NCBI GenBank assembly: GCA_005223045.1
Contig: NJBM01000009.1
Location: 61,732 to 85,731 of the forward strand
Source of the DNA: Planctomycetes bacterium B3_Pla
GTDB lineage: Bacteria; Planctomycetota; Phycisphaerae; Sedimentisphaerales; Anaerobacaceae
Direction: 5' to 3'
Length of the DNA stretch: 24,000 nucleotides
Shown one piece after another: positions 9,993 to 21,431 of the stretch (positions are counted from its first letter, which is position 1; each line of letters opens with the position of its first letter). The position numbers and the translations under genes were made by a program. The notes under the pieces are model-generated. The model was given only the letters and a program-made list of their open reading frames with translations. It was not told the DNA's origin and made no database searches.

Positions 9993-11177
9993 ATGAGACG
10001 GCGGGAATTTATTAAGAACACTGCGGCTGGACTGGCGGCGTTTGGCTCGACCCGACCGAAGAGTGCCGGGGCGAAGGGCTCGAAATATAGAGTTGCGGTT
10101 ATCGGCAGGACCGGCAAAGGTAATTACGGTCACGGGCTGGATGTAGTCTGGAACGATGTAGAGCAGGCCGAAGTCGTAGCCGTTGCGGATGAAGATTCTA
10201 AAGGCCGTGCCGGAGCGGCCAAAAGGCTCAAAGCGCCGAAAGCTTATGCGGATTATCGCCGGATGCTTAAAGAGGAGCATCCGCAGATCGTCAGTGTCGC
10301 CCCCCGCTGGTTGGATTGTCATCGCGATATGGTGCTGGCCTGCGCTGAGTTTGACTGTCACGTATTTCTTGAAAAGCCTATGTGCCAGACACTCGATCAG
10401 GCCGACGAGATGATCGCCGCTCTTGAGAAGCGGAACCTGAAGCTCGCTATCGCCCACCAGACTCGTTACAGTCCGTCGCTGAGGCATGCGCAGCGAATCA
10501 TCGCCGATGGAGTATTAGGGGACATAGTCGAATTACGGGGCAGAGGCAAAGAAGATCGTCGGGGCGGCGGTGAGGACTTGATGGTGCTCGGCACGCACGT
10601 TATGGACCTGATGCGTCTGTTCGCGGGCGATCCACAATGGTGCTTTGCAAGTGTGAACGATGGCGGAAATCCTGTTACGAGCAATGAGGTGCGCGACGGA
10701 GCCGAAGGCATCGGCCCGCTTGCCGGGGATGAGATTCATGCGACGTATGCTTTTGGCGGTACGAAAATGGGCTATTTCTCGACACATCGCGCCCGGTATG
10801 GAGCGGCGAAACGCTTCGGGCTTCAGGTTCTTGGAACGAAGGGAATACTCACCATGACGACCGGTGTGCTGCCGGAGATTTGGTTCGTCGAAGATCCCTC
10901 CTGGCAGCCCGGGCGCAGCAAGGCCCAATGGAAGCGGGTAACCAGCGCCGGAATCGACAAGCCTGAAACGCTTGCTGATCGGGGCCACGCTCTCGGCAAT
11001 CGTCTGATAGCGCTCGACCTGATCCGGGCCATTGAGACGAACACACAGCCCAAGGGCAGCGCTTACGACGGTCGGGCCGCTCTGGAGATGATATTGGCCG
11101 TGTATGAATCGCACCGGCTCGGTGCGCCTGCAAGGCTGCCGCTCAAGAACCGCCGGCATCCTTTGAGTATGCTGTGA
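9993..11177 (+). CDS. Gfo/Idh/MocA-family oxidoreductase with Tat signal (second paralogue class)
   Basis: ORF 9972..11177. Likely start is ATG 9993 after GAGGGAG. The N-terminus MRRREFIKNTAAGLAAFGS is a Tat signal. VAVIGRTGKGNYGHG is the nucleotide-binding turn. It lies 21 nt downstream of the BNR gene. Confidence 0.85.
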   Translation: MRRREFIKNTAAGLAAFGSTRPKSAGAKGSKYRVAVIGRTGKGNYGHGLDVVWNDVEQAEVVAVADEDSKGRAGAAKRLKAPKAYADYRRMLKEEHPQIVSVAPRWLDCHRDMVLACAEFDCHVFLEKPMCQTLDQADEMIAALEKRNLKLAIAHQTRYSPSLRHAQRIIADGVLGDIVELRGRGKEDRRGGGEDLMVLGTHVMDLMRLFAGDPQWCFASVNDGGNPVTSNEVRDGAEGIGPLAGDEIHATYAFGGTKMGYFSTHRARYGAAKRFGLQVLGTKGILTMTTGVLPEIWFVEDPSWQPGRSKAQWKRVTSAGIDKPETLADRGHALGNRLIALDLIRAIETNTQPKGSAYDGRAALEMILAVYESHRLGAPARLPLKNRRHPLSML

Positions 11178-11182
11178 AAATC

Positions 11183-12148
11183 CTATTCGACGAGTGTGCC
11201 GGTACAACTGGAACCGGCCCCGGCAGTGCAGCAGAAACAGTGCTCGCCCGTAATCAGTTCAATGCCCTCGCTGAGAGATTGTTCCAGTCGCTCGATTGAG
11301 ACAACCCGCCCGCTGGAATCGATTATGGGCAGGCCGAGGGCCTGATTAAAATCACAGTTGTACGCTGCTCCGTCGTAACCGATGCTGATTAACGTTCGGC
11401 ACATGATATTGTCGGCAGCCTTGGGATTGAAATTGTCCACCAGCAGCTTCCGGTATCGTTCAAGCTGCCCGTTTGTCTCTAAGTGGCGTTTGAATCTGCC
11501 TATGGGTGCGTTGGTAATCGTAAGGAGCTTGTTGAACCGCACGTTGTATTTTTCGTAGAGTTCCCTCTTATAGTCAACTTCAAGCTGGTCCTGCCGCCCG
11601 GGCAGGAAATCTCCACCCGGATTGTAAACCAGATTCATCTCCAGTCGTCCGTTGACGCCGTAGCCCAGATCATTGAGCATCCTTAGCGCTGCGATGCTCT
11701 TGGTGAACGCACCGGCACCGCGTTGTCCATCGACATTTTCCGCTGTATAGCAGGGCAGGGAAACCATCAGCACCACCTTCTTTTCGCTGTACCAGTTAGG
11801 CGCCCAGCTCAGGTCCGGCTCGAAAAAGACGGTTACATTAGTTCGCACCATAAGACGCCGGGCCAGTTCACAAACGCCGTCAACAAAGAACTTGAAATCA
11901 GGATTTAGCTCGGGACAGCCGCCTGTAATATCTACGGTAAGTCCGGGACGCCTTCTCAAAAAATCAATAACCCTCTCCATCACCTCTTTCGGCATTACCT
12001 TCTTGCCGTTCGGGCCGGCCTGCACGTGGCAGTGTGCGCAACTCTGGTTGCATCTGTCGCCTAAGTTGACCTGCAATGTCTCAAGCTGATCGAGGCGCAA
12101 CAGCCGGGGGTCAATATTCTCAAGCTCTTTACTAAAGTCTATAATCAT
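11183..12148 (-). CDS. arsS: Arsenosugar biosynthesis radical SAM protein ArsS (radical SAM plus Cys-rich C-terminal domain)
   Basis: The radical SAM CxxxCxxC motif appears in LGDRCNQSCAHCHVQAG. Overall similarity from MIIDFSKELE...TGGCPELNP onward matches the rSAM/Cys-rich family, which I recall as TIGR04167. The Cys-rich tail reads GEHCFCCTAGAGSSCTGTLVE. It sits directly downstream of an ArsM-like methyltransferase, as in Synechocystis. Confidence 0.8.
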   Translation of the reverse strand: MIIDFSKELENIDPRLLRLDQLETLQVNLGDRCNQSCAHCHVQAGPNGKKVMPKEVMERVIDFLRRRPGLTVDITGGCPELNPDFKFFVDGVCELARRLMVRTNVTVFFEPDLSWAPNWYSEKKVVLMVSLPCYTAENVDGQRGAGAFTKSIAALRMLNDLGYGVNGRLEMNLVYNPGGDFLPGRQDQLEVDYKRELYEKYNVRFNKLLTITNAPIGRFKRHLETNGQLERYRKLLVDNFNPKAADNIMCRTLISIGYDGAAYNCDFNQALGLPIIDSSGRVVSIERLEQSLSEGIELITGEHCFCCTAGAGSSCTGTLVE

Positions 12149-12175
12149 TTTCTCTCTGCTTTCTTAGCCGGTGCA

Positions 12176-13243
12176 TTAACAACAGGGAGGATTACCAAGC
12201 TCACTTTGACTATGGCGTTCAATGTTTGTGTGGGCCTCGAATTTTCCTAAATGCTCTTTGAAACTGCCCGATACCTCAAAGTGCTTCTTGAATCTGGTTT
12301 GACAAAGCATAATGGCCGTATTACCACATACATTTTCCGACTTATTCTTATCGAATACGTGCCCGGCATCAAGCTCGAATCTGAGCGGGGACCCGGGAAT
12401 CTGTCCGTTGTAAACAGCGATGTGACCGTAATCTTCACAGCCGTCTTCCAAATCTTCGAGTTTCCACAGGCGGTAGGTAATGGAATAGAACTTTATGTTC
12501 CCTACGAGGTTTTGAATCTCCTTATTGCTTACGTCAATTGTCCGTTTTGAGACAATGCGAGGGTCTGAGAAACCGACCTTCCCGGCTATTCTCTCAAAGT
12601 CTCGCTGGTACAAAGCGCCGCCGAGACATTCACCGCGCAAAACCGGATCTTCGGACATCTCTTTCGGCACTCTTCTGTCGGTATAGACATCCGAAAAATA
12701 CATCTCTCCTCCAAACTTCAGTATTTGATAAACGCTCCTCAGGATGGCCTCCTTGTCTTCGGTAAGATTGATCACACAATTAGACGTGACCACGTCCAGT
12801 GATTCTCTCTCGAAATATTCCGGGATATTCTCGATATAGTCGAAGATGAATTTGACATTTGGCACGCTGTAGCCAAACACTTTGGCCTGTGCCTCAACGT
12901 GCTTTTTAGCGACGGATATTTGATTCTCCGTCATATCTATGCCGTGGACGAATCCCCTTTCGCCGACCAGCTTTGACATCACGTAGCAGTCTCTTCCTGT
13001 CCCACAGCCGAGATCGAGCACCTTGAGGTTCTCCAGACACATCGGAATCGGTGAGCCGCAACCGTAATACTTGTCTTTAATTTCCGCGTTTATGAGAGGC
13101 AGGACCTCTGCCAGGTGATGGGGGATTTTCTGGGTGCTGCAGCATGCCTCTGTCTTCAAATCAGAAGTTTTTTGCACCACCTTCCCGTAATACTCTTTCA
13201 CAGAATCATAACTGTGGTCGGATTGTAGTACGTCACTATTCAT
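12176..13243 (-). CDS. arsM: As(III) S-adenosylmethionine methyltransferase, ArsM-like
   Basis: ORF 12176..13402. The start is moved to ATG 13243 (MNSDVLQSDH...) because the longer ORF overlaps the upstream GT2 gene; GGAGG lies about 12 nt upstream. SAM motif: VLDLGCGTGRD. All four ArsM-type cysteine contexts are present: EACCS, YYGCGSP, SNCVINL, GECLGGAL. The protein ends in vicinal Cys-Cys (PPCC). Confidence 0.75.
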   Translation of the reverse strand: MNSDVLQSDHSYDSVKEYYGKVVQKTSDLKTEACCSTQKIPHHLAEVLPLINAEIKDKYYGCGSPIPMCLENLKVLDLGCGTGRDCYVMSKLVGERGFVHGIDMTENQISVAKKHVEAQAKVFGYSVPNVKFIFDYIENIPEYFERESLDVVTSNCVINLTEDKEAILRSVYQILKFGGEMYFSDVYTDRRVPKEMSEDPVLRGECLGGALYQRDFERIAGKVGFSDPRIVSKRTIDVSNKEIQNLVGNIKFYSITYRLWKLEDLEDGCEDYGHIAVYNGQIPGSPLRFELDAGHVFDKNKSENVCGNTAIMLCQTRFKKHFEVSGSFKEHLGKFEAHTNIERHSQSELGNPPCC

Positions 13244-13245
13244 AG

Positions 13246-14007
13246 TTATTGCGATTGCCTCCAATAATGTTTTGCGAGCCAACCCGGACTGACACCGAGA
13301 CGGAACAGGGCCACCAGCACCTGATTCCTCAACGTAGTGCAGATAGCTCCATCGCGTTCCCATCTTCGTGCCGAAGTCACTACTTTGTCCGGCAGTATGC
13401 AAATCTTTCTTCCATCTTTTTTTATACGGCGCATCAGCTCCACATCTTCCATCAGCGGAATATCTTTGAATCCGCCGATCTGATCGAAGTATTTCTTCCT
13501 CAAGAAAATCGCCTGGTCTCCGTATGGGATTCTATTCCACCGGGAACGAATACTGGCGCGGACCGAGATATATCTCAAAAAGAACCTGTCCGAATCTATT
13601 TTAAGATCAAAAGCCCCTCCGACATAATCGGAGTCTTCCATGACCCGGTGGATTTTCTCCGGAGCGCCGTGCGGCAACGTCGTGTCGGCGTGCAGGAAAA
13701 TCAGTATTTCTCCACTCGCCGCTGCGGCGCCGGCGTTCATCTGCCTGCCTCGGCCCTTGCTCGCCGTAATGGCGATCACATCCTTGTCTCGTAGAACCCC
13801 GACCGTGCCGCCCTGTGGATCGCCGTCAACAACAATAACTTCGCAAAACGATTTAAGGTCCTGATTGCGCAGATTATCGATAAGCGAGTTGATCCGATCT
13901 GCCTCATCCAGAACAGGGACTATTATTGAAAAGTAGCATTGGCTTGATTCCCTCCGCCTATTTGTGTCACAGGTTGTCAAATTACCATTGCTCATTCTGT
14001 ATCGCAT
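13246..14007 (-). CDS. Family 2 glycosyltransferase of the rSAM-associated / arsenosugar-biosynthesis type (recalled as TIGR04283-like)
   Basis: The GT-A fold motifs FSIIVPVLDEADRI, VIVVDGDPQGGT and ILIFLHADT are present. The C-terminal half, YGDQAIFLRKKYFDQIGGF...PLMEDVELMRRI...ARRWERDG, matches that family. Its stop is 2 nt before the ArsM start. The start is ambiguous: ATG 14007, ATG 13995, or TTG 14028, which has AAGGA 6 nt upstream. The track start 14034 is another TTG. Confidence 0.7.
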   Translation of the reverse strand: MRYRMSNGNLTTCDTNRRRESSQCYFSIIVPVLDEADRINSLIDNLRNQDLKSFCEVIVVDGDPQGGTVGVLRDKDVIAITASKGRGRQMNAGAAAASGEILIFLHADTTLPHGAPEKIHRVMEDSDYVGGAFDLKIDSDRFFLRYISVRASIRSRWNRIPYGDQAIFLRKKYFDQIGGFKDIPLMEDVELMRRIKKDGRKICILPDKVVTSARRWERDGAICTTLRNQVLVALFRLGVSPGWLAKHYWRQSQ

Positions 14008-14037
14008 AAACAAACATATCCACGACAAGGGCAATCC

Positions 14038-14670
14038 TTAAAAATTAGCGGCTATTTCCTTCGCCCGGTCGAGAGCTTCCTGCCGTTTTGCTTTTGCAAC
14101 ATCCGGGCCACCCTGCAAAGTAGGCTCGACAACTACGGACCGTATGTCCTTGAAACCCATGAAGCCAAAGATCAACTCGATGTATTTGGTTTGCAGGTCG
14201 AACGCTTCAGCCCCGCCGCCGACGGGATATTCCCCGCCGCGGGCGCAGACGGCCAGCAATGGTTTTCCAACGACAAGGCCCTCATACCCTTTGTCTTCGC
14301 TATAGCTGAATGTGTAGCCGGGCTGAACCAGAATGTCAATGTACTGCTTGAGCCTGTACGGAATGCCGAAATTCCACATCGGCACGGCAAACACATACTT
14401 ATCCGCCGCGGTGAACTGCTCGATCACCCGCTCAACATTCTTCCATGCCTGCTGTTCCTCCTGCGTATGCGCCTGCCCGTGCAAGATCGTATATTTGGCC
14501 TGCACGGCGAGACCATCAAAATTTGGGAGCGGCGCATCGAACAAGTTCAAAGCCACAATCTCATCGTCCGGATGCGCTCGTTGGTACTCTCCGACGAACG
14601 CATCGGCAACGGCAATCGAGTGTGATCTTTGAATTCTCGGGGAAGCCTGAATATATAGAAGTTTGCTCAT
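14038..14670 (-). CDS. azoR: FMN-dependent NADH-azoreductase / quinone reductase (AzoR family)
   Basis: MSKLLYIQASPRIQRSHSIAVADAF...VPMWNFGIPYRLKQYIDILVQPGYTF is the characteristic AzoR (AcpD-like flavodoxin fold) sequence. AAGGAAG lies upstream of ATG 14670. Confidence 0.8.
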   Translation of the reverse strand: MSKLLYIQASPRIQRSHSIAVADAFVGEYQRAHPDDEIVALNLFDAPLPNFDGLAVQAKYTILHGQAHTQEEQQAWKNVERVIEQFTAADKYVFAVPMWNFGIPYRLKQYIDILVQPGYTFSYSEDKGYEGLVVGKPLLAVCARGGEYPVGGGAEAFDLQTKYIELIFGFMGFKDIRSVVVEPTLQGGPDVAKAKRQEALDRAKEIAANF

Positions 14671-14700
14671 GGCTTTCTTCCTTTCTGAACTTCACTGGCG

Positions 14701-15129
14701 CTATTTGCCAAGGGCCTGTCTCAGATCCATGGCATGCTCCTGCTCGGTGGCAAGGATGTTTCTGAGCTGCTGCGCCAGCGCGAACTCCTTGAGCTGCTCA
14801 GCCTGTTCTATTCTTATTTTGTATCTCTTTATTGCATCCTCTTCGCCGTCCAGATCCTGCCGCAGCATTTCATCGTTTTCCTCCGATGTCCTGATCTTGC
14901 CGACTACAACGGTGGGTGAGCCTCGGAGATAATCTATCTGGTCCGCCAGAACCATGGCGTGCTGAATTTCCTCGTTCGCGTGGATCTTAAGCTCCTTTAT
15001 GATGTCTCCGTAAGCCGCCCCGGTCATTACCGCCCCGTGATTTATGTACTGTATCGCGGCAGAGTACTCAAGCTCCAAATCCATATTCAGCAAATCAATC
15101 AGTTTTTCTGTTGTCACTTCCATTTTCAT
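14701..15129 (-). CDS. Ferritin-like diiron four-helix-bundle protein (bacterioferritin/Dps-like)
   Basis: Paired ligand motifs are present: ELEYSAA, then EEIQHA, and EEDAIKRY, then EQEHAMD (E...ExxH twice). The protein is about 140 aa. The second ATG (15123) has better spacing to GAGAGG, so the start may be 15123. Confidence 0.7.
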   Translation of the reverse strand: MKMEVTTEKLIDLLNMDLELEYSAAIQYINHGAVMTGAAYGDIIKELKIHANEEIQHAMVLADQIDYLRGSPTVVVGKIRTSEENDEMLRQDLDGEEDAIKRYKIRIEQAEQLKEFALAQQLRNILATEQEHAMDLRQALGK

Positions 15130-15148
15130 TGCCTCTCATATACATATA

Positions 15149-15709
15149 TCATTTTCCCGGTTTCCACTTTATGTTGCAGCCTATGCTCGGCTTTTGCTCT
15201 TCGGAGACCGGCTTTCCTTCCAGAACGGCATCAATCGCCGCGGAAAGGTCCGCTCCGGTGACAGGCAGGCCGTTGCCGGGCCGGCTGTCGTCCAACTGGC
15301 CCCGATAGACAAGCGTTCCTTCGCTGTCGAACAGAAAGAAATCCGGAGTGCAGGCGGCGCTGTATGACCTGGCAACTTCCTGCGTCTCGTCATAGAGATA
15401 GGGAAAAGTAAACCCAAATTCTCTTGCCGTCTCAGCCATCAGCTCGGGGCTGTCGTCCGGAAAATTTGCAACGTCATTTGAATTAATCCCGATGATTGCT
15501 ACTCCTTTTGCCTGATACTCTCCAGCCAACTCGACGAGAGGATTCAGAATATGTTTTACGAACGGACAATGGTTACACATAAAAATAACCAACAAAGCCG
15601 GTGCTTCGGCAAAGTCGCCCAGAGACACAGTGTTGCCCGTCGTATCGGGCAGGTTAAATTCGGGCGCCGATGTTCCAAGAGGAAGCATTTTTGATGCTGT
15701 AACAACCAT
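15149..15709 (-). CDS. Thioredoxin-fold protein, PRX-like/AhpC-TSA-like with CxxC (CNHCP)
   Basis: ORF 15149..15730; the track start is TTG. I prefer ATG 15709, which follows AAGGAG plus 6 nt. LPLGTSAPEFNLPDTTGNTVSLGDF...ALLVIFMCNHCPFVKH is typical of the PRX-like thioredoxin family. Confidence 0.75.
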   Translation of the reverse strand: MVVTASKMLPLGTSAPEFNLPDTTGNTVSLGDFAEAPALLVIFMCNHCPFVKHILNPLVELAGEYQAKGVAIIGINSNDVANFPDDSPELMAETAREFGFTFPYLYDETQEVARSYSAACTPDFFLFDSEGTLVYRGQLDDSRPGNGLPVTGADLSAAIDAVLEGKPVSEEQKPSIGCNIKWKPGK

Positions 15710-15746
15710 AAGAAACTCCTTATCTGTCAATCAGCCACTGACATAT

Positions 15747-16784
15747 TTACGTGGAAACTTGCAGAGCGATCTTTCCGAATTGTTCTGCCGCTTCCATTTT
15801 GCCCATGGCGTCGGTTACGTTTTCCAACGGCGAGACTGAGTCTAAGATGGGCCGAAGCTTTGCCGTTGTGACTGCCTTGACCATCTGGCGGAAGTCCTCA
15901 TTCGAGCCCATCGTCGAGCCCATGATCGTCAACTGGTTCCAGTAGAGTGCCCGCAAGTTCGTGACGGCTTCTGCGTCGGAAGTTACGCCGCATATTACTA
16001 CCTTGCCGCCGCGGCGCACCGCTGAAAAGTCGATAGGCCAGGTGGCCGCTCCGACGGTATCGACGGCAATATCGACGCCTGCGCCGGATGTGATATCCTT
16101 CACGCATTGCGCTACATCGTCCACAGTTCGGTAATTGATCTTGTGGTCGGCGCCTATTTTGTCGGCCCGATCCAGTTTTTCATCCGATGACGAGGTCACT
16201 ATAACCTCTGCGCCTGCAAGCTTAGCCAACTGCAGGGCGCAAAGAGCGACGCCGCCGCCTATGCCGTGTATCAAAACCGTCTGTCCCGGCCTAAGCCGGG
16301 CTCGCATCATTAGCATTCGCCAGGCGGTGAGGTATGCCAATACAAACGCTCCGGCTTCGTTGAAGCTCATGTGAGAAGGTTTCGGAAACACGTTGCGGGC
16401 CGGCACAGCCACCTGCTCTGCAAACGTCCCCTGGCTGCTCAGCCCTACAATCCCGAATGACGTGCACTCGCTCTGCTCGCCGCGATTGCAATATTCACAG
16501 CGGCCGCAACTGAGACCCGGATTTAAAATCACTTCGTCGCCGACAGTTACGGCACTGACCTTCGCACCGGCGGCCGCTACTATCCCTGCGGCGTCGGAGC
16601 CGAGAATATGCGGCTCAGACAGTTTGAGCCCACTCCGGCCTTTTCTCACCCATATATCCAGATGGTTGAGTCCGGCCGAACGAACGTCCAAAACAACTTC
16701 GTCTTCGGACGGCTCAGGTTCAGGGACGTGCTCGACTTTGAGCCGATCCAGCCCACCATGTTCTCGAATAAACGCTGCTTTCAT
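15747..16784 (-). CDS. Zinc-type medium-chain alcohol dehydrogenase/reductase (MDR family)
   Basis: ORF 15747..16808; likely start is ATG 16784 (MKAAFIREHGG). The structural-zinc Cys cluster is GLSCGRCEYCNRGEQSEC. The nucleotide-binding motif is VLIHGIGGGVALCALQLAKLAG. Confidence 0.8.
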   Translation of the reverse strand: MKAAFIREHGGLDRLKVEHVPEPEPSEDEVVLDVRSAGLNHLDIWVRKGRSGLKLSEPHILGSDAAGIVAAAGAKVSAVTVGDEVILNPGLSCGRCEYCNRGEQSECTSFGIVGLSSQGTFAEQVAVPARNVFPKPSHMSFNEAGAFVLAYLTAWRMLMMRARLRPGQTVLIHGIGGGVALCALQLAKLAGAEVIVTSSSDEKLDRADKIGADHKINYRTVDDVAQCVKDITSGAGVDIAVDTVGAATWPIDFSAVRRGGKVVICGVTSDAEAVTNLRALYWNQLTIMGSTMGSNEDFRQMVKAVTTAKLRPILDSVSPLENVTDAMGKMEAAEQFGKIALQVST

Positions 16785-16829
16785 TACACATACCCCAAAA
16801 AGTAACAACCCCCGCCGATGTGATTCAAC

Positions 16830-17021
16830 TCATTCTTCAATTGCGATTGCCGCCGTAGGGCAATCCTCCGCTGCTTCCATGCAGGCTTCGTACAGCTCTT
16901 CGGGAACATCGTCCATTCTTACCACAGCTATCCCCTCTTCATTTAACTCGAAAGCCTCCGGGCAAACGTCAACACAAGGACCGCACCCGCAACAAAGTTC
17001 AGGATCAACATGGACTTTCAT
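16830..17021 (-). CDS. Small single-cluster [4Fe-4S]/[3Fe-4S] ferredoxin (63 aa)
   Basis: MKVHVDPELCCGCGPCVDVCPEAF...EDCPTAAIAIEE gives the Cx2Cx2Cx3CP pattern plus a distal CP. A strong SD, AAAGGAGAGACAAAATG, precedes ATG 17021. The 115-aa track ORF (to 17177) is an N-terminal over-extension. Confidence 0.8.
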   Translation of the reverse strand: MKVHVDPELCCGCGPCVDVCPEAFELNEEGIAVVRMDDVPEELYEACMEAAEDCPTAAIAIEE

Positions 17022-17222
17022 TTTGTCTCTCCTTTCAGTTTGATTTTTGGTTCTCAGCACTCTGAAATCTCTGCTGCGTACCCCTGCCGGACCAGAGCAA
17101 AAGCTGCTACCGAATCTCCTTATCAACCATCGAGTATAATTGCTGTTAGATTTCAATGCTAAAAAAGCATTACCCAAAGCTATTCAAGGCATACGCTACC
17201 CTTCTTTGAAAAGTTCAAACTC

Positions 17223-17378
17223 TTTAAGATAACCTCCGCCACCTACACAAGAGCCATTCCGAACGATCCGGGACCGTGCCGTCGTCGTAGAAGAAACCGC
17301 CGCTGACACTGCTCGTTAGCGACACACTTAGTTTCGTCGCCGTGGCTGCAAACATTGACTCCTGCCTTTTTTTTATCA
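17223..17378 (-). CDS. Unannotated 51-codon ORF, hypothetical small protein (below the ORF-track size cutoff)
   Basis: My translation is MIKKRQESMFAATATKLSVSLTSSVSGGFFYDDGTVPDRSEWLLCRWRRLS, with stop TAA at 17225..17223. GGAGAAAGGGAG lies immediately upstream of ATG 17378. An internal ATG (17354) also follows AGGCAGGAG. I recognise no family. Coding status is unproven. Confidence 0.3.
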
Positions 17379-17392
17379 TCTCCCTTTCTCCG

Positions 17393-17449
17393 AACTACAA
17401 CTTTACGAGGTGGCAGTGTCAATCATAACGCGATCCGATGCACAGGCAA
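17393..17449 (-). promoter_or_regulatory. Candidate sigma70-like promoters upstream of the small ORF and redox/arsenic gene array
   Basis: On the minus strand there are two candidates. One is TTGCCT (17449..17444), 16 nt, TATGAT (17427..17422). The other is a perfect TTGACA (17422..17417), 18 nt, TGTAGT (17398..17393). This is hexamer matching only, and the promoter consensus for this lineage is unknown. Confidence 0.3.
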
Positions 17450-17550
17450 GTTTTTTTGAGATGTTAAATTGGGAAAAAAGTCTTCAAAGGCGGCTGTCTG
17501 CTCCTGAAACTCTAAACAGAGGCACAAATTCAAGGCAAAAGGAAAAAGGT

Positions 17551-17567
17551 AAAAGCTTTTGGCTTTT
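17551..17567 (-). terminator. Weak hairpin plus T-rich tract downstream of the response-regulator gene
   Basis: The minus strand reads AAAAGC-CAAAA-GCTTTT, followed by ACCTTTTTCCTTTTGCC, starting 10 nt after the stop at 17578. The stem is only 6 bp and AT-rich, so this is a marginal intrinsic terminator. Confidence 0.25.
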
Positions 17568-17577
17568 TACTTTATGA

Positions 17578-18297
17578 CTATCCGCTGTTGCCGGAACTGC
17601 TTGCCCATTGGATGGCGTGCTGAAGCAGCTCGGCAGCGTCCGTCAGATCCAACTTGTCCTTGATATGCGCCCTGTAGGTCTCGATCGTTTTTACACTCAG
17701 GTGCAGGCGCTCGGAAATCTGGCGAGTCCCGTAGCCCCTGCCGATTAAATGAAACACTTCCAATTCACGGTCGCTCAGGCGCTCAACCGGAGAGGCCGTT
17801 GTCTCTGTTTGGCCTGTGACCAATTTGCGCACCATTCTCGTAGCCATTCTATCGCTGACGTATATCTCGCCGCCCAGGATCCTGCGCATTGCCACGATAA
17901 CATTTTCTGTGGCTTCCTGTTTCATGATATACCCCATGGCCCCGGCGCGGAGAGCACGCTCGGCATACAACGACTCATCGTGCATAGAGAGCGCCAGAAC
18001 CGGCAGGTTGGGGTGCTGCGAATTGATATCTTTTATCAGTTCCAGGCCGCTTGTCTCTTTGAGGGAAATGTCAACAACAGCCATGTTGGGCTTCATTTCC
18101 TTGATCGCTTTCATTGCCTGATGGGCATCCTCTGCTTGTCCACAGACTTCAAGGTCGCTCTCGTGATTGACAAGCTCTGCAAGGCCCTGCCTAACGATAG
18201 GATGGTCATCCACAATGAGGATCTTAGCTCTATTCTCAGTTGTCTTGTCTGACTGTTTTTTTTGAGCCATAATTTGCCTTTGCGTTGTAGTTAGCAT
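17578..18297 (-). CDS. NarL/FixJ-type response regulator (REC plus LuxR/GerE HTH)
   Basis: The receiver domain is KILIVDDHPIVRQGL...MAVVDISL...PVLALSMH. The HTH is LSDRELEVFHLIGRGYGTRQISERLHLSVKTIETYRAHIKDKL. ATG 18297 overlaps the kinase stop (ATGCTAA). The alternative start ATG 18270 (MAQKKQ) is equally possible. Confidence 0.85.
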   Translation of the reverse strand: MLTTTQRQIMAQKKQSDKTTENRAKILIVDDHPIVRQGLAELVNHESDLEVCGQAEDAHQAMKAIKEMKPNMAVVDISLKETSGLELIKDINSQHPNLPVLALSMHDESLYAERALRAGAMGYIMKQEATENVIVAMRRILGGEIYVSDRMATRMVRKLVTGQTETTASPVERLSDRELEVFHLIGRGYGTRQISERLHLSVKTIETYRAHIKDKLDLTDAAELLQHAIQWASSSGNSG

Positions 18298-21200
18298 CTC
18301 TTGTCCGGAAACGAACAGATCACCATTGTGCCGCCCTCAACTCTTTTGTGAACATCGAGCGAAGCGCCGATTATGTCGGCACGGTGATCCATGATCTGCA
18401 GCCCCATACCCGTGCCTCTGGCCTCTAATTCCGCCGGAAAATCCAGTCCGTCATTTTGGACTGTGAGGACAAGATCATCTTTTCGACGAGCCAATTCTAC
18501 CGCGATGCTATTTGTCTTGCCGTGTTTGATCGCGTTGGTGATGGCTTCCTGGGTGATGCGATAAAGATGCGTTGCCACTTCGGTATCATCTATTGGAACG
18601 GGCCCGTCACATTTGAAAACACAATCGATTCCGAACAGCTTCTTTGTAGTTGCGGCAAGCTCCTGCAATGCAACCGTTAAGCTGCCGGCATCCAGGTCTA
18701 TAGGATGAAGTCCCTTCGCAAGACCTCGTGTCTGGTCCATCGCCTCGTTGACAAGATTCTTGATTTCCGTGGCATCGGTCGCTTCACCCGGCAACTTGCC
18801 GGCGAGCTTCTGCTCCAGGGCCTTCGTCATAAAGGCGATGCCGGTAAACTGCTGGCCGATGCTGTCGTGCAGCTCCCGCCCTATTCGGCGCTGCTCCCGC
18901 TCACTGATATTCAGGATCTCCTTCTCCAGGCGCTTTCGCTGTTCGATTTGCTGCAGCAGCCTCTCGTTTGCCTGGGTCAATTCTGCTGTTCGCGTCTGAA
19001 CCAGCTCTTCGAGGTGACTTCGATATTCCCGGAGATCTTCTTCGGCATGCTTGCGGTCGGTAATATCCATGCCATAGACATTGATATATTCGGCGCCGAC
19101 AATATGTGCCATTATCAGAGAAAAGATTCTGTCTTTGCACGGGGCTTCAAGGGTTTTGCTCAGGCCCGATTCAAATATCGACAAAACGTATCGGCGCCAA
19201 TGTTCGGGCGCCGGTCCGCCGACTTTGCAGCCCCAGTTTTCCAAGAGTTCGGAACCGGCGGTGTTCGCATAAAGCACCGTACCGTCTTTGGTAATGCGCA
19301 GGACTGGGTGCGGATTCTCAGAAGGAAACTTTGCTATGTTCTCTACCTCACGCTCGGCCCGGATCCTTGCCATGCCTATGCCGATGCTGGCGCCGATTTC
19401 CTCAAAAGACCGTACCATCTCGGGCGTAAAACGTCCCGGTCGAGTGTCATTGAGCTGTAACAATCCCACAATCTCCTCGCCCGAACGCAGCGCGATCAAG
19501 GCTACCGATTCATATCCGGCCCGGTTACACTGGTTTCGTATGGAACCCTGGATAGCTTCTTGTGGGTCGCAGGCCACCAATTCTGTAGTGTTGTTGGTCC
19601 AAAAACTTCCACCTTCTGTGAAAAACGGCAAAGTCGCGTCGGCGCGACCGGTCAAAACGTTGCCGCACACACACTCAATGACCGGGCGCCCCGACGAATC
19701 GTAAGTCAGCTCGCCGGCTTCGTCGCGGCAACAGAGGTAATTCTCGGCTTTGATAAAATCGTCCGAAAAACCGTCCACCGCAAGATATGGAAAATCATCG
19801 CCCTGGCGATGGCGAATCCCAACGGCGTCAAGATCGGTGGACTCCTTAATAAGCCTGAGAACATCACGGACCAAATCAACTTCTTCACTTTCACGGTTGA
19901 GACACTCGAGGATTTGCCCGGCTAATTGCTGGTGTGTTTCTATTTCTTTGCGTTCGCTGATGTCACGAACTATGGCCAGCAGGCACTTGCGGCCCTCGAT
20001 GACCGCCAGCCTGAGATTGATTTCCGTCCAGAATTTGCTGCCTGTCTTACGTTTACTGAGCGTCTCGAAAAGCTGTGGCTCTTCGGCGACTACCTCTTTT
20101 ACACGTTGCAGCGCGCTTTCCTGTGTGGGTGCCGGTACATCTGCGGTGAGATCCGGCACCGTAATTTTCTCGAACTCCTGCTGAGTGTAGCCAAACATTT
20201 GACATGCTTTACGGTTGACGCTGAGTATTCTCAGAGTCTCGACATCATGAACGAGTATAGCATCGTTTGCACTGTTGAAGATGGCCCTATAGTTGGCTTC
20301 GGATTTCTGAAGGGCCTCCTCGGCGCGTTTGCGCCCGAGCAACCGCCACGTATCACTCATCATTGATGTAACCGCGCGGACGTCCGATTCGTCGTAATCG
20401 CTCACCTTGTTCGCGATCCCTACTACGGCAACGATAAGATCCCCATCAAAAACAGGAACACCTAAGAATCGCTCGATCGGAATGTGCCCTTGCGGAAAAC
20501 CTCTTTTCGCAGGATGAGGGGCATCATAGTCGTTGACAATGACAGGTTTTCTCTGCCGAACGGGCTCTCCCCACAGGCCCGCCTCAGCTATGGGAAACCG
20601 CATTGGCTGTTCGGCAATAGCGCATTGCTCCATCGTCTCGACCGACCAGTTGTCCACACTCATTATCGATTCGTCGTCGTTCATAAAGCCGACGAACGCA
20701 AAGCGACTTCGGGTAATCTTAATTACCTGTTCCCGCACAAAGTCCAGAATCTTCCGCTGAGAGGCTTCCGCCATTTTGTTGAGATCCAGCAAGGCTTGCA
20801 GTCTCATCTCATGGATCTTCAGCACCTTATCCGCCTTCTCTCGATCGGAGCTCTCGATGACTTTCCACTCACCGTTCTTCTTGATAAGGGCGAACTGATG
20901 ATTGCTCACCACATCTATGATTTCTGAAGTGGTGCATTTATCGAGAGAATAGGTACAAATGCCCAACATTCTATATTTGCCCACGCCATTGTTTGCAACT
21001 GATTCATAATGAGCGAACTTCTCCCAATCTTTATTCTCGAGCCAAAAGGCGTTTCCCGTAAAGCGAAGTCCGTCAAATCCTCTTTCCAGGGCGTGCCTCT
21101 CTTTGTCAATCCACGCCTGCAACACCCTGTCACAATCAAGACGTCCTGACTTCATGTACCACTGATCGTGACCAATTATTTCTATCTGGCCTTTCTTAAC

Positions 21201-21431
21201 GTAATCGTCTAAGTCTCTTACCTTCTTTTTTAAGGCAACATGGGCATCCTCAGCGCCGAGCGGCTCCGAAGCAACCCATATACATAATTCATTATTCTCC
21301 AATCCCGCCTTGAAATAAGGAACCAGAACGTCGATAAGGTCCTCTTTGGTCCTGTAGAACTGACAGAAGTGTGTGCCCCAGGGAACGTTACCCACAGCGC
21401 CTATTGCCGTTTTTCTTGTTTCTGCTCCCAT
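18291..21431 (-). CDS. Soluble hybrid-architecture sensor histidine kinase: MEDS, GAF, PAS, GAF, PAS-like, HisKA_3, HATPase_c
   Basis: The N-terminus GTHFCQFYRTKEDLIDVLVPYFKAGLENNELCIWV...GLRFTGNAFWL...ICTYSL matches the MEDS domain. The PAS region includes ANYRAIFNSANDAILVHD...RDISERKE. The PAS-like region is FPSENPHPVLRITKDGTVLYANTAG...MDITDRKHAE. The H-box of HisKA_3 type is EREQRRIGRELHDSIGQQ. The ATPase region includes ITNAIKHG...NDGLDF...GTGMGLQIM. I saw no hydrophobic TM segment. Confidence 0.85.
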   Translation of the reverse strand: MGAETRKTAIGAVGNVPWGTHFCQFYRTKEDLIDVLVPYFKAGLENNELCIWVASEPLGAEDAHVALKKKVRDLDDYVKKGQIEIIGHDQWYMKSGRLDCDRVLQAWIDKERHALERGFDGLRFTGNAFWLENKDWEKFAHYESVANNGVGKYRMLGICTYSLDKCTTSEIIDVVSNHQFALIKKNGEWKVIESSDREKADKVLKIHEMRLQALLDLNKMAEASQRKILDFVREQVIKITRSRFAFVGFMNDDESIMSVDNWSVETMEQCAIAEQPMRFPIAEAGLWGEPVRQRKPVIVNDYDAPHPAKRGFPQGHIPIERFLGVPVFDGDLIVAVVGIANKVSDYDESDVRAVTSMMSDTWRLLGRKRAEEALQKSEANYRAIFNSANDAILVHDVETLRILSVNRKACQMFGYTQQEFEKITVPDLTADVPAPTQESALQRVKEVVAEEPQLFETLSKRKTGSKFWTEINLRLAVIEGRKCLLAIVRDISERKEIETHQQLAGQILECLNRESEEVDLVRDVLRLIKESTDLDAVGIRHRQGDDFPYLAVDGFSDDFIKAENYLCCRDEAGELTYDSSGRPVIECVCGNVLTGRADATLPFFTEGGSFWTNNTTELVACDPQEAIQGSIRNQCNRAGYESVALIALRSGEEIVGLLQLNDTRPGRFTPEMVRSFEEIGASIGIGMARIRAEREVENIAKFPSENPHPVLRITKDGTVLYANTAGSELLENWGCKVGGPAPEHWRRYVLSIFESGLSKTLEAPCKDRIFSLIMAHIVGAEYINVYGMDITDRKHAEEDLREYRSHLEELVQTRTAELTQANERLLQQIEQRKRLEKEILNISEREQRRIGRELHDSIGQQFTGIAFMTKALEQKLAGKLPGEATDATEIKNLVNEAMDQTRGLAKGLHPIDLDAGSLTVALQELAATTKKLFGIDCVFKCDGPVPIDDTEVATHLYRITQEAITNAIKHGKTNSIAVELARRKDDLVLTVQNDGLDFPAELEARGTGMGLQIMDHRADIIGASLDVHKRVEGGTMVICSFPDKRC

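Follow-up and report, generated by a model that had tools for sequence, protein, structure and literature searches.

Do eight closely spaced genes on one strand, three of them for organoarsenical chemistry and five for redox proteins, encode one pathway or two? The question is raised by a 24,000-nt stretch of contig NJBM01000009.1 from Planctomycetes bacterium B3_Pla (hereafter the window), in which eight intact open reading frames (ORFs), all on the minus strand, lie between 11183 and 17177, the called genes spanning 11183-17021. Genes for a ferredoxin (Fdx), an oxidoreductase of the MDR/ADH family (ADH), a PRX-like thioredoxin-fold protein (Prx), a ferritin-fold protein (Ftn) and an AzoR-like reductase are followed by those for a glycosyltransferase (GT2), the arsenite methyltransferase ArsM and the radical-SAM enzyme ArsS. 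A preliminary description proposed that the five redox proteins form an alternative accessory set of the GT2-ArsM-ArsS core in a variant pathway; were they partners of ArsS, they would be candidates for enzymes that act late in arsenosugar synthesis, or supply its reductant, in anaerobes. This proposal is not supported by neighbourhood counts, by a deletion scar within the array or by reciprocal natural deletions. The array probably consists of two functionally separate modules carried end to end in this genome; it gives no ground for a new arsenic pathway, and its core is a member of a known arsenosugar-type cluster.

The arsS gene of Synechocystis shares a transcript with arsM, and its product catalyses the first committed step of arsenosugar synthesis (10.1101/2022.09.23.509062, citing Xue et al. 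2017/2019). ArsS adenosylates dimethylarsenite (DMAs(III)) to 5'-deoxy-5'-dimethylarsinoyl-adenosine (DDMAA) in a reaction described as redox-neutral, which proceeds without NADH (PMC13598754), which weakens the case for a dedicated ferredoxin or other reductant supply; the mechanistic reference for the enzyme is Cheng et al. 2021, as cited in PMC12159101. A literature search returned no report on arsS neighbourhoods in Planctomycetota, nor on the five redox families as ArsS partners.

Neighbours of arsS and of the redox genes

Eighty arsS loci, each with at most 10 kb of flanking sequence, were retrieved by ArsS alignment from GTDB species-representative genomes (Phycisphaerae/Sedimentisphaerales, Geobacterales/Desulfuromonadales, Omnitrophota and others), and the ORFs called in them were searched with the window proteins and with proteins annotated from one relative, L009. 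Seventy-nine loci could be scored, L069 being left out for lack of an ArsS match in the ORF search, and companions were counted if they lay no more than 6 kb from arsS and on its strand, in 58 distant and 21 close loci. Companions that recur are DedA, a MerA-like pyridine-nucleotide disulfide reductase (PNDR), TIGR04282, TIGR04283 (the GT2 family), ArsM and DUF547, found respectively (DedA including VTT) in 37, 30, 22, 21, 8 and 4 of the distant loci, and in 12, 11, 15, 19, 8 and 13 of the close ones. TIGR04282 is present in 37 of the 79 scorable loci (at 192.4 bits against a cut-off of 134 in L009), as expected of the DUF2064-type companion described as usual for ArsS, and it is indeed missing from the window. 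Recurrence of the five redox families beside arsS in other genomes, which had been named as a check, was not found: ADH, Ftn, AzoR and Fdx occur in none of the 58 distant loci, and Prx homologues in two, both weak (E = 5e-7 and 2e-8), one on the same strand within 6 kb and the other on the opposite strand. Among the 21 close loci, Prx was counted five times, AzoR and Ftn three times each and ADH twice.

Seen from the redox side, 80 metagenome Prx loci of 61-77% identity were kept from 585 confirmed stretches of a Prx alignment search, the family being widespread. No fewer than 78 of them are without arsS; the two with an ArsS signal are L081, on the same contig as the arsS locus L003, and L084, with a 77-nt remnant. 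The ADH-Prx pair stands alone in L089 and L095, as does Fdx-Prx-…-Ftn in L117. The redox genes associate with each other, not with arsS.

No credible homologue of the ferredoxin, proposed as reductant of the radical-SAM cluster, was found among the 80 arsS loci (search to E<10, filters off), and the redox neutrality of the ArsS reaction likewise speaks against such a role. Homologues of the ferredoxin adjoin Prx and Ftn in L117 (5e-22) and lie 4.3 kb upstream of Prx in L088; among the arsS loci compared, a ferredoxin at this position appears specific to this genome. Small ORFs upstream of ADH in relatives were considered as ferredoxin counterparts and rejected, as they encode an unrelated Cys-rich protein.

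In Phycisphaerae relatives the redox and ars genes form a longer string. The loci L009, L012, L013 and L043 share, on one strand, the order ADH-Prx-Ftn-AzoR-DUF255 thioredoxin-rubrerythrin-like-OFOR alpha-OFOR beta (OFOR being 2-oxoacid:ferredoxin oxidoreductase), followed by GT2-ArsM-SpoIIE phosphatase-ArsS-DUF547-TIGR04282-PNDR-DedA. Redox genes upstream and DUF547, TIGR04282, PNDR and DedA downstream of the same arsS are found together in L006, L009, L013 and L043, and a role of the redox set as replacement for the usual companions was rejected on this ground. The distance between AzoR and GT2 ranges from 0 (window, L004) over ~3 kb (L001, L003) and ~6 kb (L009, L012, L013, L043) to ~10 kb (L006), and the relatives' string contains unrelated inserts, i.e., a phosphoribosyltransferase, a PAS kinase with two receivers, GlmS and a Ni superoxide dismutase (Ni-SOD). 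In the ArsS tree the redox-bearing loci fall in two sub-clades of one Phycisphaerae group; L008, L010, L011 and L018 sit between these sub-clades and show no redox block in the 9 kb upstream. The redox block upstream of arsS is patchy and limited to part of one Phycisphaerae group, and its gene order was found conserved within that part only, not across divergent genomes.

Two of the additional genes in these strings deserve mention. The SpoIIE/PP2C-type phosphatase (~540 aa; L009:8335-9969) lies between ArsM (or GT2) and ArsS, likewise in L012, L013, L014 and L020, an insertion seen in one Phycisphaerae sub-clade. The Ni-SOD gene (L006:874-1461) lies between an AzoR fragment and the OFOR genes and fits an oxidative-stress theme.

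Geobacterales/Desulfuromonadales carry arsS in a bare same-strand trio of MerA-like disulfide reductase, DedA/VTT and ArsS (L032, L034, L036, L040, L048, L057, L064, L067, L068, L071, L076, L080), with the partners ~0.5-4 kb upstream of arsS (at ~10001) and no ArsM, GT2 or TIGR04282 within 10 kb of it. Judged from this gene content, the ArsS family may serve a role other than arsenosugar synthesis there.

The AzoR-GT2 junction and natural deletions

The 42 nt past the AzoR stop (14037-13996) align to the spacer between AzoR and the rubrerythrin-like gene (Rbr) of L003 and to the start of that gene (window 'VDMFVYAIQNEQW*' against L003 'MNIFIYAMQMEKDG'), and ~3.2 kb of L001 and L003, comprising Rbr, OFOR-alpha and OFOR-beta, is missing from the window. 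A rubrerythrin 5' remnant followed by an ATG that matches the GT2 start thus implies that the window lost ~3.2 kb, joining AzoR and GT2. On this alignment the contact between the two genes is the result of a secondary deletion, and, since it arose by removal of the genes between, it is no evidence of a new arsenic pathway. The GT2 start is also better placed at the ATG at 13995 than at 14007: the resulting N-terminus, MSNGNLTTCD, compares with MSDGGLTDCD in the GT2 of L003, and the in-frame ATG at 14007 falls within the rubrerythrin remnant.

Reciprocal natural deletions show that each module persists without the other. In L084 the order is ADH-Prx-AzoR-[77-nt ArsS 3' remnant]-GFO, the ars core and Ftn being lost, and in L002 it is ADH-Prx(5' part)-GT2-ArsS, with Ftn, AzoR and part of Prx lost; both stand at ~75% nucleotide identity and have the same GFO/BNR flank. 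L001-L004 lack exactly the ArsM ORF, and the excision is nearly exact in L003, where the sequence corresponding to 13230-12171 of the window is missing. Taken as a natural deletion series, the window, L001-L004 and L084 show that the ars core may be lost without its neighbours and the neighbours without it. Per-gene identity is uniform over redox, ars and flanking genes (64-90%), which fits vertical inheritance of one syntenic region.

Within its closest sub-clade, the window is the only member that keeps ArsM between GT2 and ArsS. The GC content of ArsM and GT2 is lower (0.47-0.50) than the window average of ~0.54, and a horizontal gain of ArsM was considered on account of it; this was rejected, as the identity of ArsM to relatives (64-72%) parallels that of ArsS (66-71%).

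Probably separate modules and competing explanations

If the array is made of two separate modules, ArsM of the first (11183-13995) would methylate As(III) to DMAs(III), ArsS would transfer a 5'-deoxyadenosyl group to this product to give dimethylarsinoyl-adenosine, and the TIGR04283 GT2 would act at some step of the pathway; these activities are inferred from family membership, the enzymes tested being those of Synechocystis only. The second module (14038-17021) we infer to be an anaerobe's generic block of stress-defence genes for thiols, iron and quinones, together with a lineage-specific ferredoxin. In ancestors of the Phycisphaerae lineage the modules would already have lain on the same strand, with rubrerythrin and OFOR genes between them (and a DUF255 thioredoxin-domain gene too in one sub-clade), and the ~3.2-kb deletion would then have removed the intervening genes and fused the AzoR downstream spacer to the GT2 start. 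Co-transcription of the eight genes in this genome is plausible and alone would not show a shared pathway, as a single transcript would reflect gene packing and deletion rather than co-adaptation.

Several observations weigh against such a separation. The redox block and the ars core keep the same strand, order and tight spacing in two Phycisphaerae sub-clades whose ArsS proteins are 67-81% identical to that of the window; this linkage reaches further back than the conserved GFO/BNR flank and may have been kept by selection. Gaps are short (roughly 0-135 nt) even in the undeleted array of L003, and no terminator is predicted at any junction of the window array. The universal arsS companions PNDR and DedA share a thiol/redox theme, and redox partners of ArsS are not implausible in principle. 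Finally, the ArsS tree on which the patchiness is read is a neighbour-joining tree without support values, and the absence of the block at some loci covers at most 10 kb of flank.

A coupling at the level of regulation only we consider unlikely: the array would be one transcript induced by stress, perhaps controlled by the MEDS-GAF-PAS kinase and LuxR regulator upstream of it, the rationale being that trivalent methylarsenicals are thiol-reactive and oxygen-labile, and the redox proteins themselves would not act on arsenic compounds. Such a transcript would fit the tight gaps without predicted terminators, the long upstream gap as the only obvious promoter region, the response regulator/histidine kinase pair syntenic upstream in several relatives and the same-strand order kept in two sub-clades; it fits less well with the lack of ArsR and of any other ars resistance gene in the window, with the unrelated genes (SpoIIE phosphatase, PAS kinase, phosphoribosyltransferase) inserted in the relatives' string and with a minus-strand run that goes on through clearly unrelated genes, and promoters inside coding sequence are possible despite the scans.

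It is also unlikely that the whole Phycisphaerae string, MDR-Prx-Ftn-AzoR-(DUF255-Trx-Rbr-OFOR)-GT2-ArsM-(SpoIIE)-ArsS-DUF547-TIGR04282-PNDR-DedA, is a single co-regulated unit of which the window is a minimised version, its redox genes supplying the lost roles of PNDR and DedA. If true, organoarsenical synthesis would be linked with the redox homeostasis of thiols, iron and ferredoxin.

Very unlikely, given the counts and the junction described above, is a variant organoarsenical pathway in which the five redox proteins are dedicated accessory enzymes replacing TIGR04282 and AhpD-like partners. Just as improbable are the parts assigned to these proteins: reduction of ArsS by the ferredoxin, methylarsenicals held trivalent by Prx and AzoR, and a ribose tailored by ADH and the diiron protein. 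The idea draws on eight contiguous same-strand genes whose gaps do not exceed 45 nt and show no predicted terminator, on the absence of the usual partners from the window and on the redox block upstream of arsS in several relatives, but four of the five families are absent from all 58 loci outside the Phycisphaerae group and the two Prx matches there are weak. In addition, relatives (L009, L013, L043, L006) carry the redox block together with TIGR04282, PNDR and DedA, the AzoR/GT2 junction is a deletion scar, and L002 has GT2-ArsS without Ftn, AzoR or an intact Prx just as L084 has most redox genes without the ars core. The ferredoxin seems peculiar to this genome at this position and the ArsS reaction is redox-neutral (PMC13598754); moreover, the ferritin-like protein resembles bacterioferritins, not tailoring oxygenases, and ADH is without catalytic zinc ligands.

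Lastly, that the ars core is a decaying remnant without function in this sub-lineage, leaving the array without pathway meaning, is extremely improbable: the window and L001-L004 have lost DUF547, TIGR04282, PNDR and DedA, L001-L004 have also lost ArsM, and L084 nearly the whole core, but the three core ORFs of the window are intact and full length with every invariant residue and catalytic motif kept, and the protein identity of ArsS to relatives (79-81%) exceeds the nucleotide identity (~75%), consistent with purifying selection.

The practical value of two probably separate modules is corrective, in that tight same-strand spacing in a densely packed genome is not to be read as a pathway. 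The ArsS companions worth testing are those that recur across phyla, i.e., TIGR04282, TIGR04283, DUF547, the MerA-like disulfide reductase and DedA.

Gene products, spacing and flanking sequence

All eight proteins matched the families assigned to them in the preliminary description (Pfam, NCBIfam), and the identity of the GT2-ArsM-ArsS core was confirmed by TIGR04167, TIGR04283, PDB and Pfam matches (Table 1).

Table 1. Positions of the genes of the array and of adjoining features in the window
Feature	Position	Strand	Evidence or reading
ArsS, arsenosugar-type radical-SAM enzyme, 321 aa	11183-12148	-	TIGR04167, Pfam Radical_SAM + DUF3641
ArsM, As(III) S-adenosylmethionine methyltransferase, 355 aa	12176-13243	-	PDB homology and Cys motifs
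GT2, TIGR04283 'arsenosugar biosynthesis glycosyltransferase'	13246-13995 (14007 in the preliminary description)	-	TIGR04283
Deletion scar: AzoR-Rbr spacer and first ~13 codons of lost rubrerythrin-like gene, fused to GT2 start	13996-14037	-	Aligned locally with L003 5980-6045
AzoR-like FMN-dependent NAD(P)H quinone/azo reductase, 210 aa	14038-14670	-	Flavodoxin_2, 168 bits
Ftn, bacterioferritin/Dps-like ferritin-fold protein, 142 aa	14701-15129	-	PF00210, 70 bits
Prx, PRX-like CxxC thioredoxin-fold protein, 186 aa	15149-15709	-	Pfam AhpC-TSA, Redoxin
MDR/ADH, MDR-superfamily NAD(P)H oxidoreductase, 345 aa	15747-16784	-	Pfam ADH_N + ADH_zinc_N
Fdx, small single-cluster [4Fe-4S] ferredoxin, 63 aa	16830-17021	-	Fer4_15, Fer4_13
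Non-coding gap upstream of array, 556 nt	17022-17577	.	Likely promoter region
LuxR-type response regulator	17578-18297	-	Pfam
MEDS-GAF-PAS histidine kinase	18291-21431	-	Pfam

ArsS scores 394.8 bits against the TIGR04167 equivalog (cut-off 300) and 165.5 bits in its Cys-rich C-terminal DUF3641 domain (PF12345), and neither the CNQSCAHC (CxxxCxxC) cluster motif nor the C-terminal HCFCCTAGAGSSC motif varies in an alignment of 22 homologues. The protein is 100% identical to P0001 of 'Planctomycetes bacterium B3_Pla'. ArsM matches solved arsenite methyltransferases (E=1.7e-94 for PDB 5EVJ, 6.8e-86 for CmArsM 4FR0) and carries four catalytic Cys motifs (TEACC, YYGCG, SNCVINL, GECLGGALY); it falls under every NCBIfam ArsM cut-off (NF008823, 159.7 against 263; the arsenosugar-specific NF038099, 99.3 against 400) and, by motifs and structural homology, is of the AS3MT/CmArsM type, outside the curated arsenosugar subtype. 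GT2 reaches 253.9 bits against TIGR04283 (cut-off 182). By family membership, GT2-ArsM-ArsS is thus a recognised arsenosugar-type cluster, trimmed but otherwise standard: Pfam/NCBIfam annotation of the 24,000-nt window found no TIGR04282, DUF547, AhpD-like or ArsR gene and no other ars resistance gene, and the locus has neither the disulfide reductase nor DedA; a convergent GFO/BNR glycan gene pair occupies the place of the missing companions.

The core resembles the arsM-arsS pair of Synechocystis sp. PCC 6803 in having ArsM and radical-SAM ArsS adjacent on the same strand, with a TIGR04167-level ArsS, a four-Cys-motif ArsM and an expected chemistry leading from As(III) through DMAs(III) to DDMAA. 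It differs in its host, a metagenome-assembled genome of an anaerobic, non-phototrophic planctomycete of Phycisphaerae type, in the translational juxtaposition of a TIGR04283 GT2 to ArsM (2-nt gap) and in an ArsM far under the NCBIfam 'AsSugarArsM' cut-off. The NCBIfam/TIGRFAM 'arsenosugar biosynthesis' neighbourhood is made of TIGR04167 ArsS, TIGR04282, TIGR04283 and ArsM, and empirically also of DUF547, a MerA-like disulfide reductase and DedA/VTT. Of the named families, two are above cut-off in the window, in the canonical order GT2-ArsM-ArsS also found in L005, L006, L008 and L011, whereas TIGR04282, DUF547, the disulfide reductase and DedA are absent from the locus.

Among the redox proteins, the AzoR-like reductase scores 150.2 bits against NF010075, below the cut-off of 188, and among solved structures Ftn is closest to 2QQY, a deposit named 'Sigma B operon', with bacterioferritins next. 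Prx has a CNHC motif, and its nearest solved relatives, 2YWI (7e-74), 3U5R and 2CVB, are uncharacterised. The protein first called a 'Zn-ADH' does belong to the MDR/ADH family, with T. thermophilus 2EIH as best PDB match (2.2e-86); the zinc-dependent catalytic type does not hold, as the catalytic Zn ligands are absent (LNHLD and LGSD instead) with the structural Cys4 lobe kept, and the protein is better described simply as an MDR oxidoreductase. The neighbourhoods that these five genes resemble are those of anaerobe oxidative stress, in which rubrerythrin, peroxiredoxin/thioredoxin-fold proteins, ferritin/Dps, quinone reductases and superoxide dismutase occur: rubrerythrin, the DUF255-thioredoxin and Ni-SOD take the same position in relatives, and sub-blocks (ADH-Prx; Fdx-Prx-Ftn) occur alone elsewhere. 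Unlike in such neighbourhoods, the nearest structures of the Prx-like and MDR proteins (2YWI, 3U5R, 2CVB; 2EIH) carry generic or 'hypothetical' names.

Gene starts were chosen by inspection of start codons and ribosome-binding sites, that of the ferredoxin being AAAGGAGAG. The eight contiguous minus-strand genes and their spacing were borne out as first described, with gaps from Fdx to ArsS of 45, 37, 19, 30, 30, 2 and 27 nt; the sole revision is the GT2 start at 13995, which makes the AzoR-GT2 gap 42 nt, not 30. A consensus scan found no terminator-like site at any of the seven junctions, the minus-strand terminator candidates being weak and confined to the inside of the Prx coding sequence, and promoter-like sites were not above shuffle expectation (9 found against 6.0 +/- 2.3 expected). 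One strand, short gaps and junctions without intrinsic terminator are what a single operon would have; this is a weak test, since other same-strand junctions of the window are equally tight or overlapping (BNR/GFO 0 nt, histidine kinase/response regulator -7 nt, 861-2210/2198-6034 -13 nt), and spacing therefore says little about the array. Close spacing is normal in this genome and does not single the array out. In full, the minus-strand run comprises 11 genes and reaches 23943, adding the response regulator, the histidine kinase and a GH92 gene; homologues of one or both of the two regulators lie upstream in L002, L003, L004, L081 and L085.

No non-coding stretch between called ORFs of the window is longer than the 556-nt gap that precedes the array. 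The sigma-70-like minus-strand sites of this gap (17449-17422, 17162-17133) are not above chance, and a riboswitch or small RNA was rejected after an Rfam scan of 10800-18400 (E<=1) gave one chance-level match, inside the ADH gene. The gap is not homologous to relatives, where a Cys-rich ORF of ~95 aa occupies the same position. It contains a 51-aa ORF (17224-17379, minus strand) with a strong Shine-Dalgarno sequence, GGAGAAAGGGAG, and with no Pfam match and no homology to the relatives.

The Cys-rich ~95-aa ORF is conserved between the response regulator and ADH (L001:2669-2971, L003:2594-2887, L004:5279-5551, also L081 and L082) and has three CxxCG…C-x-P repeats, with zinc-ribbon matches that are weak and sub-threshold; its position is filled in the window by the 556-nt gap and the ferredoxin. 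The remainder of the window consists of glycan-utilisation genes. The GC skew of the window goes negative at ~11 kb, where the genes switch to the minus strand, and reflects coding-strand bias, not a separate feature.

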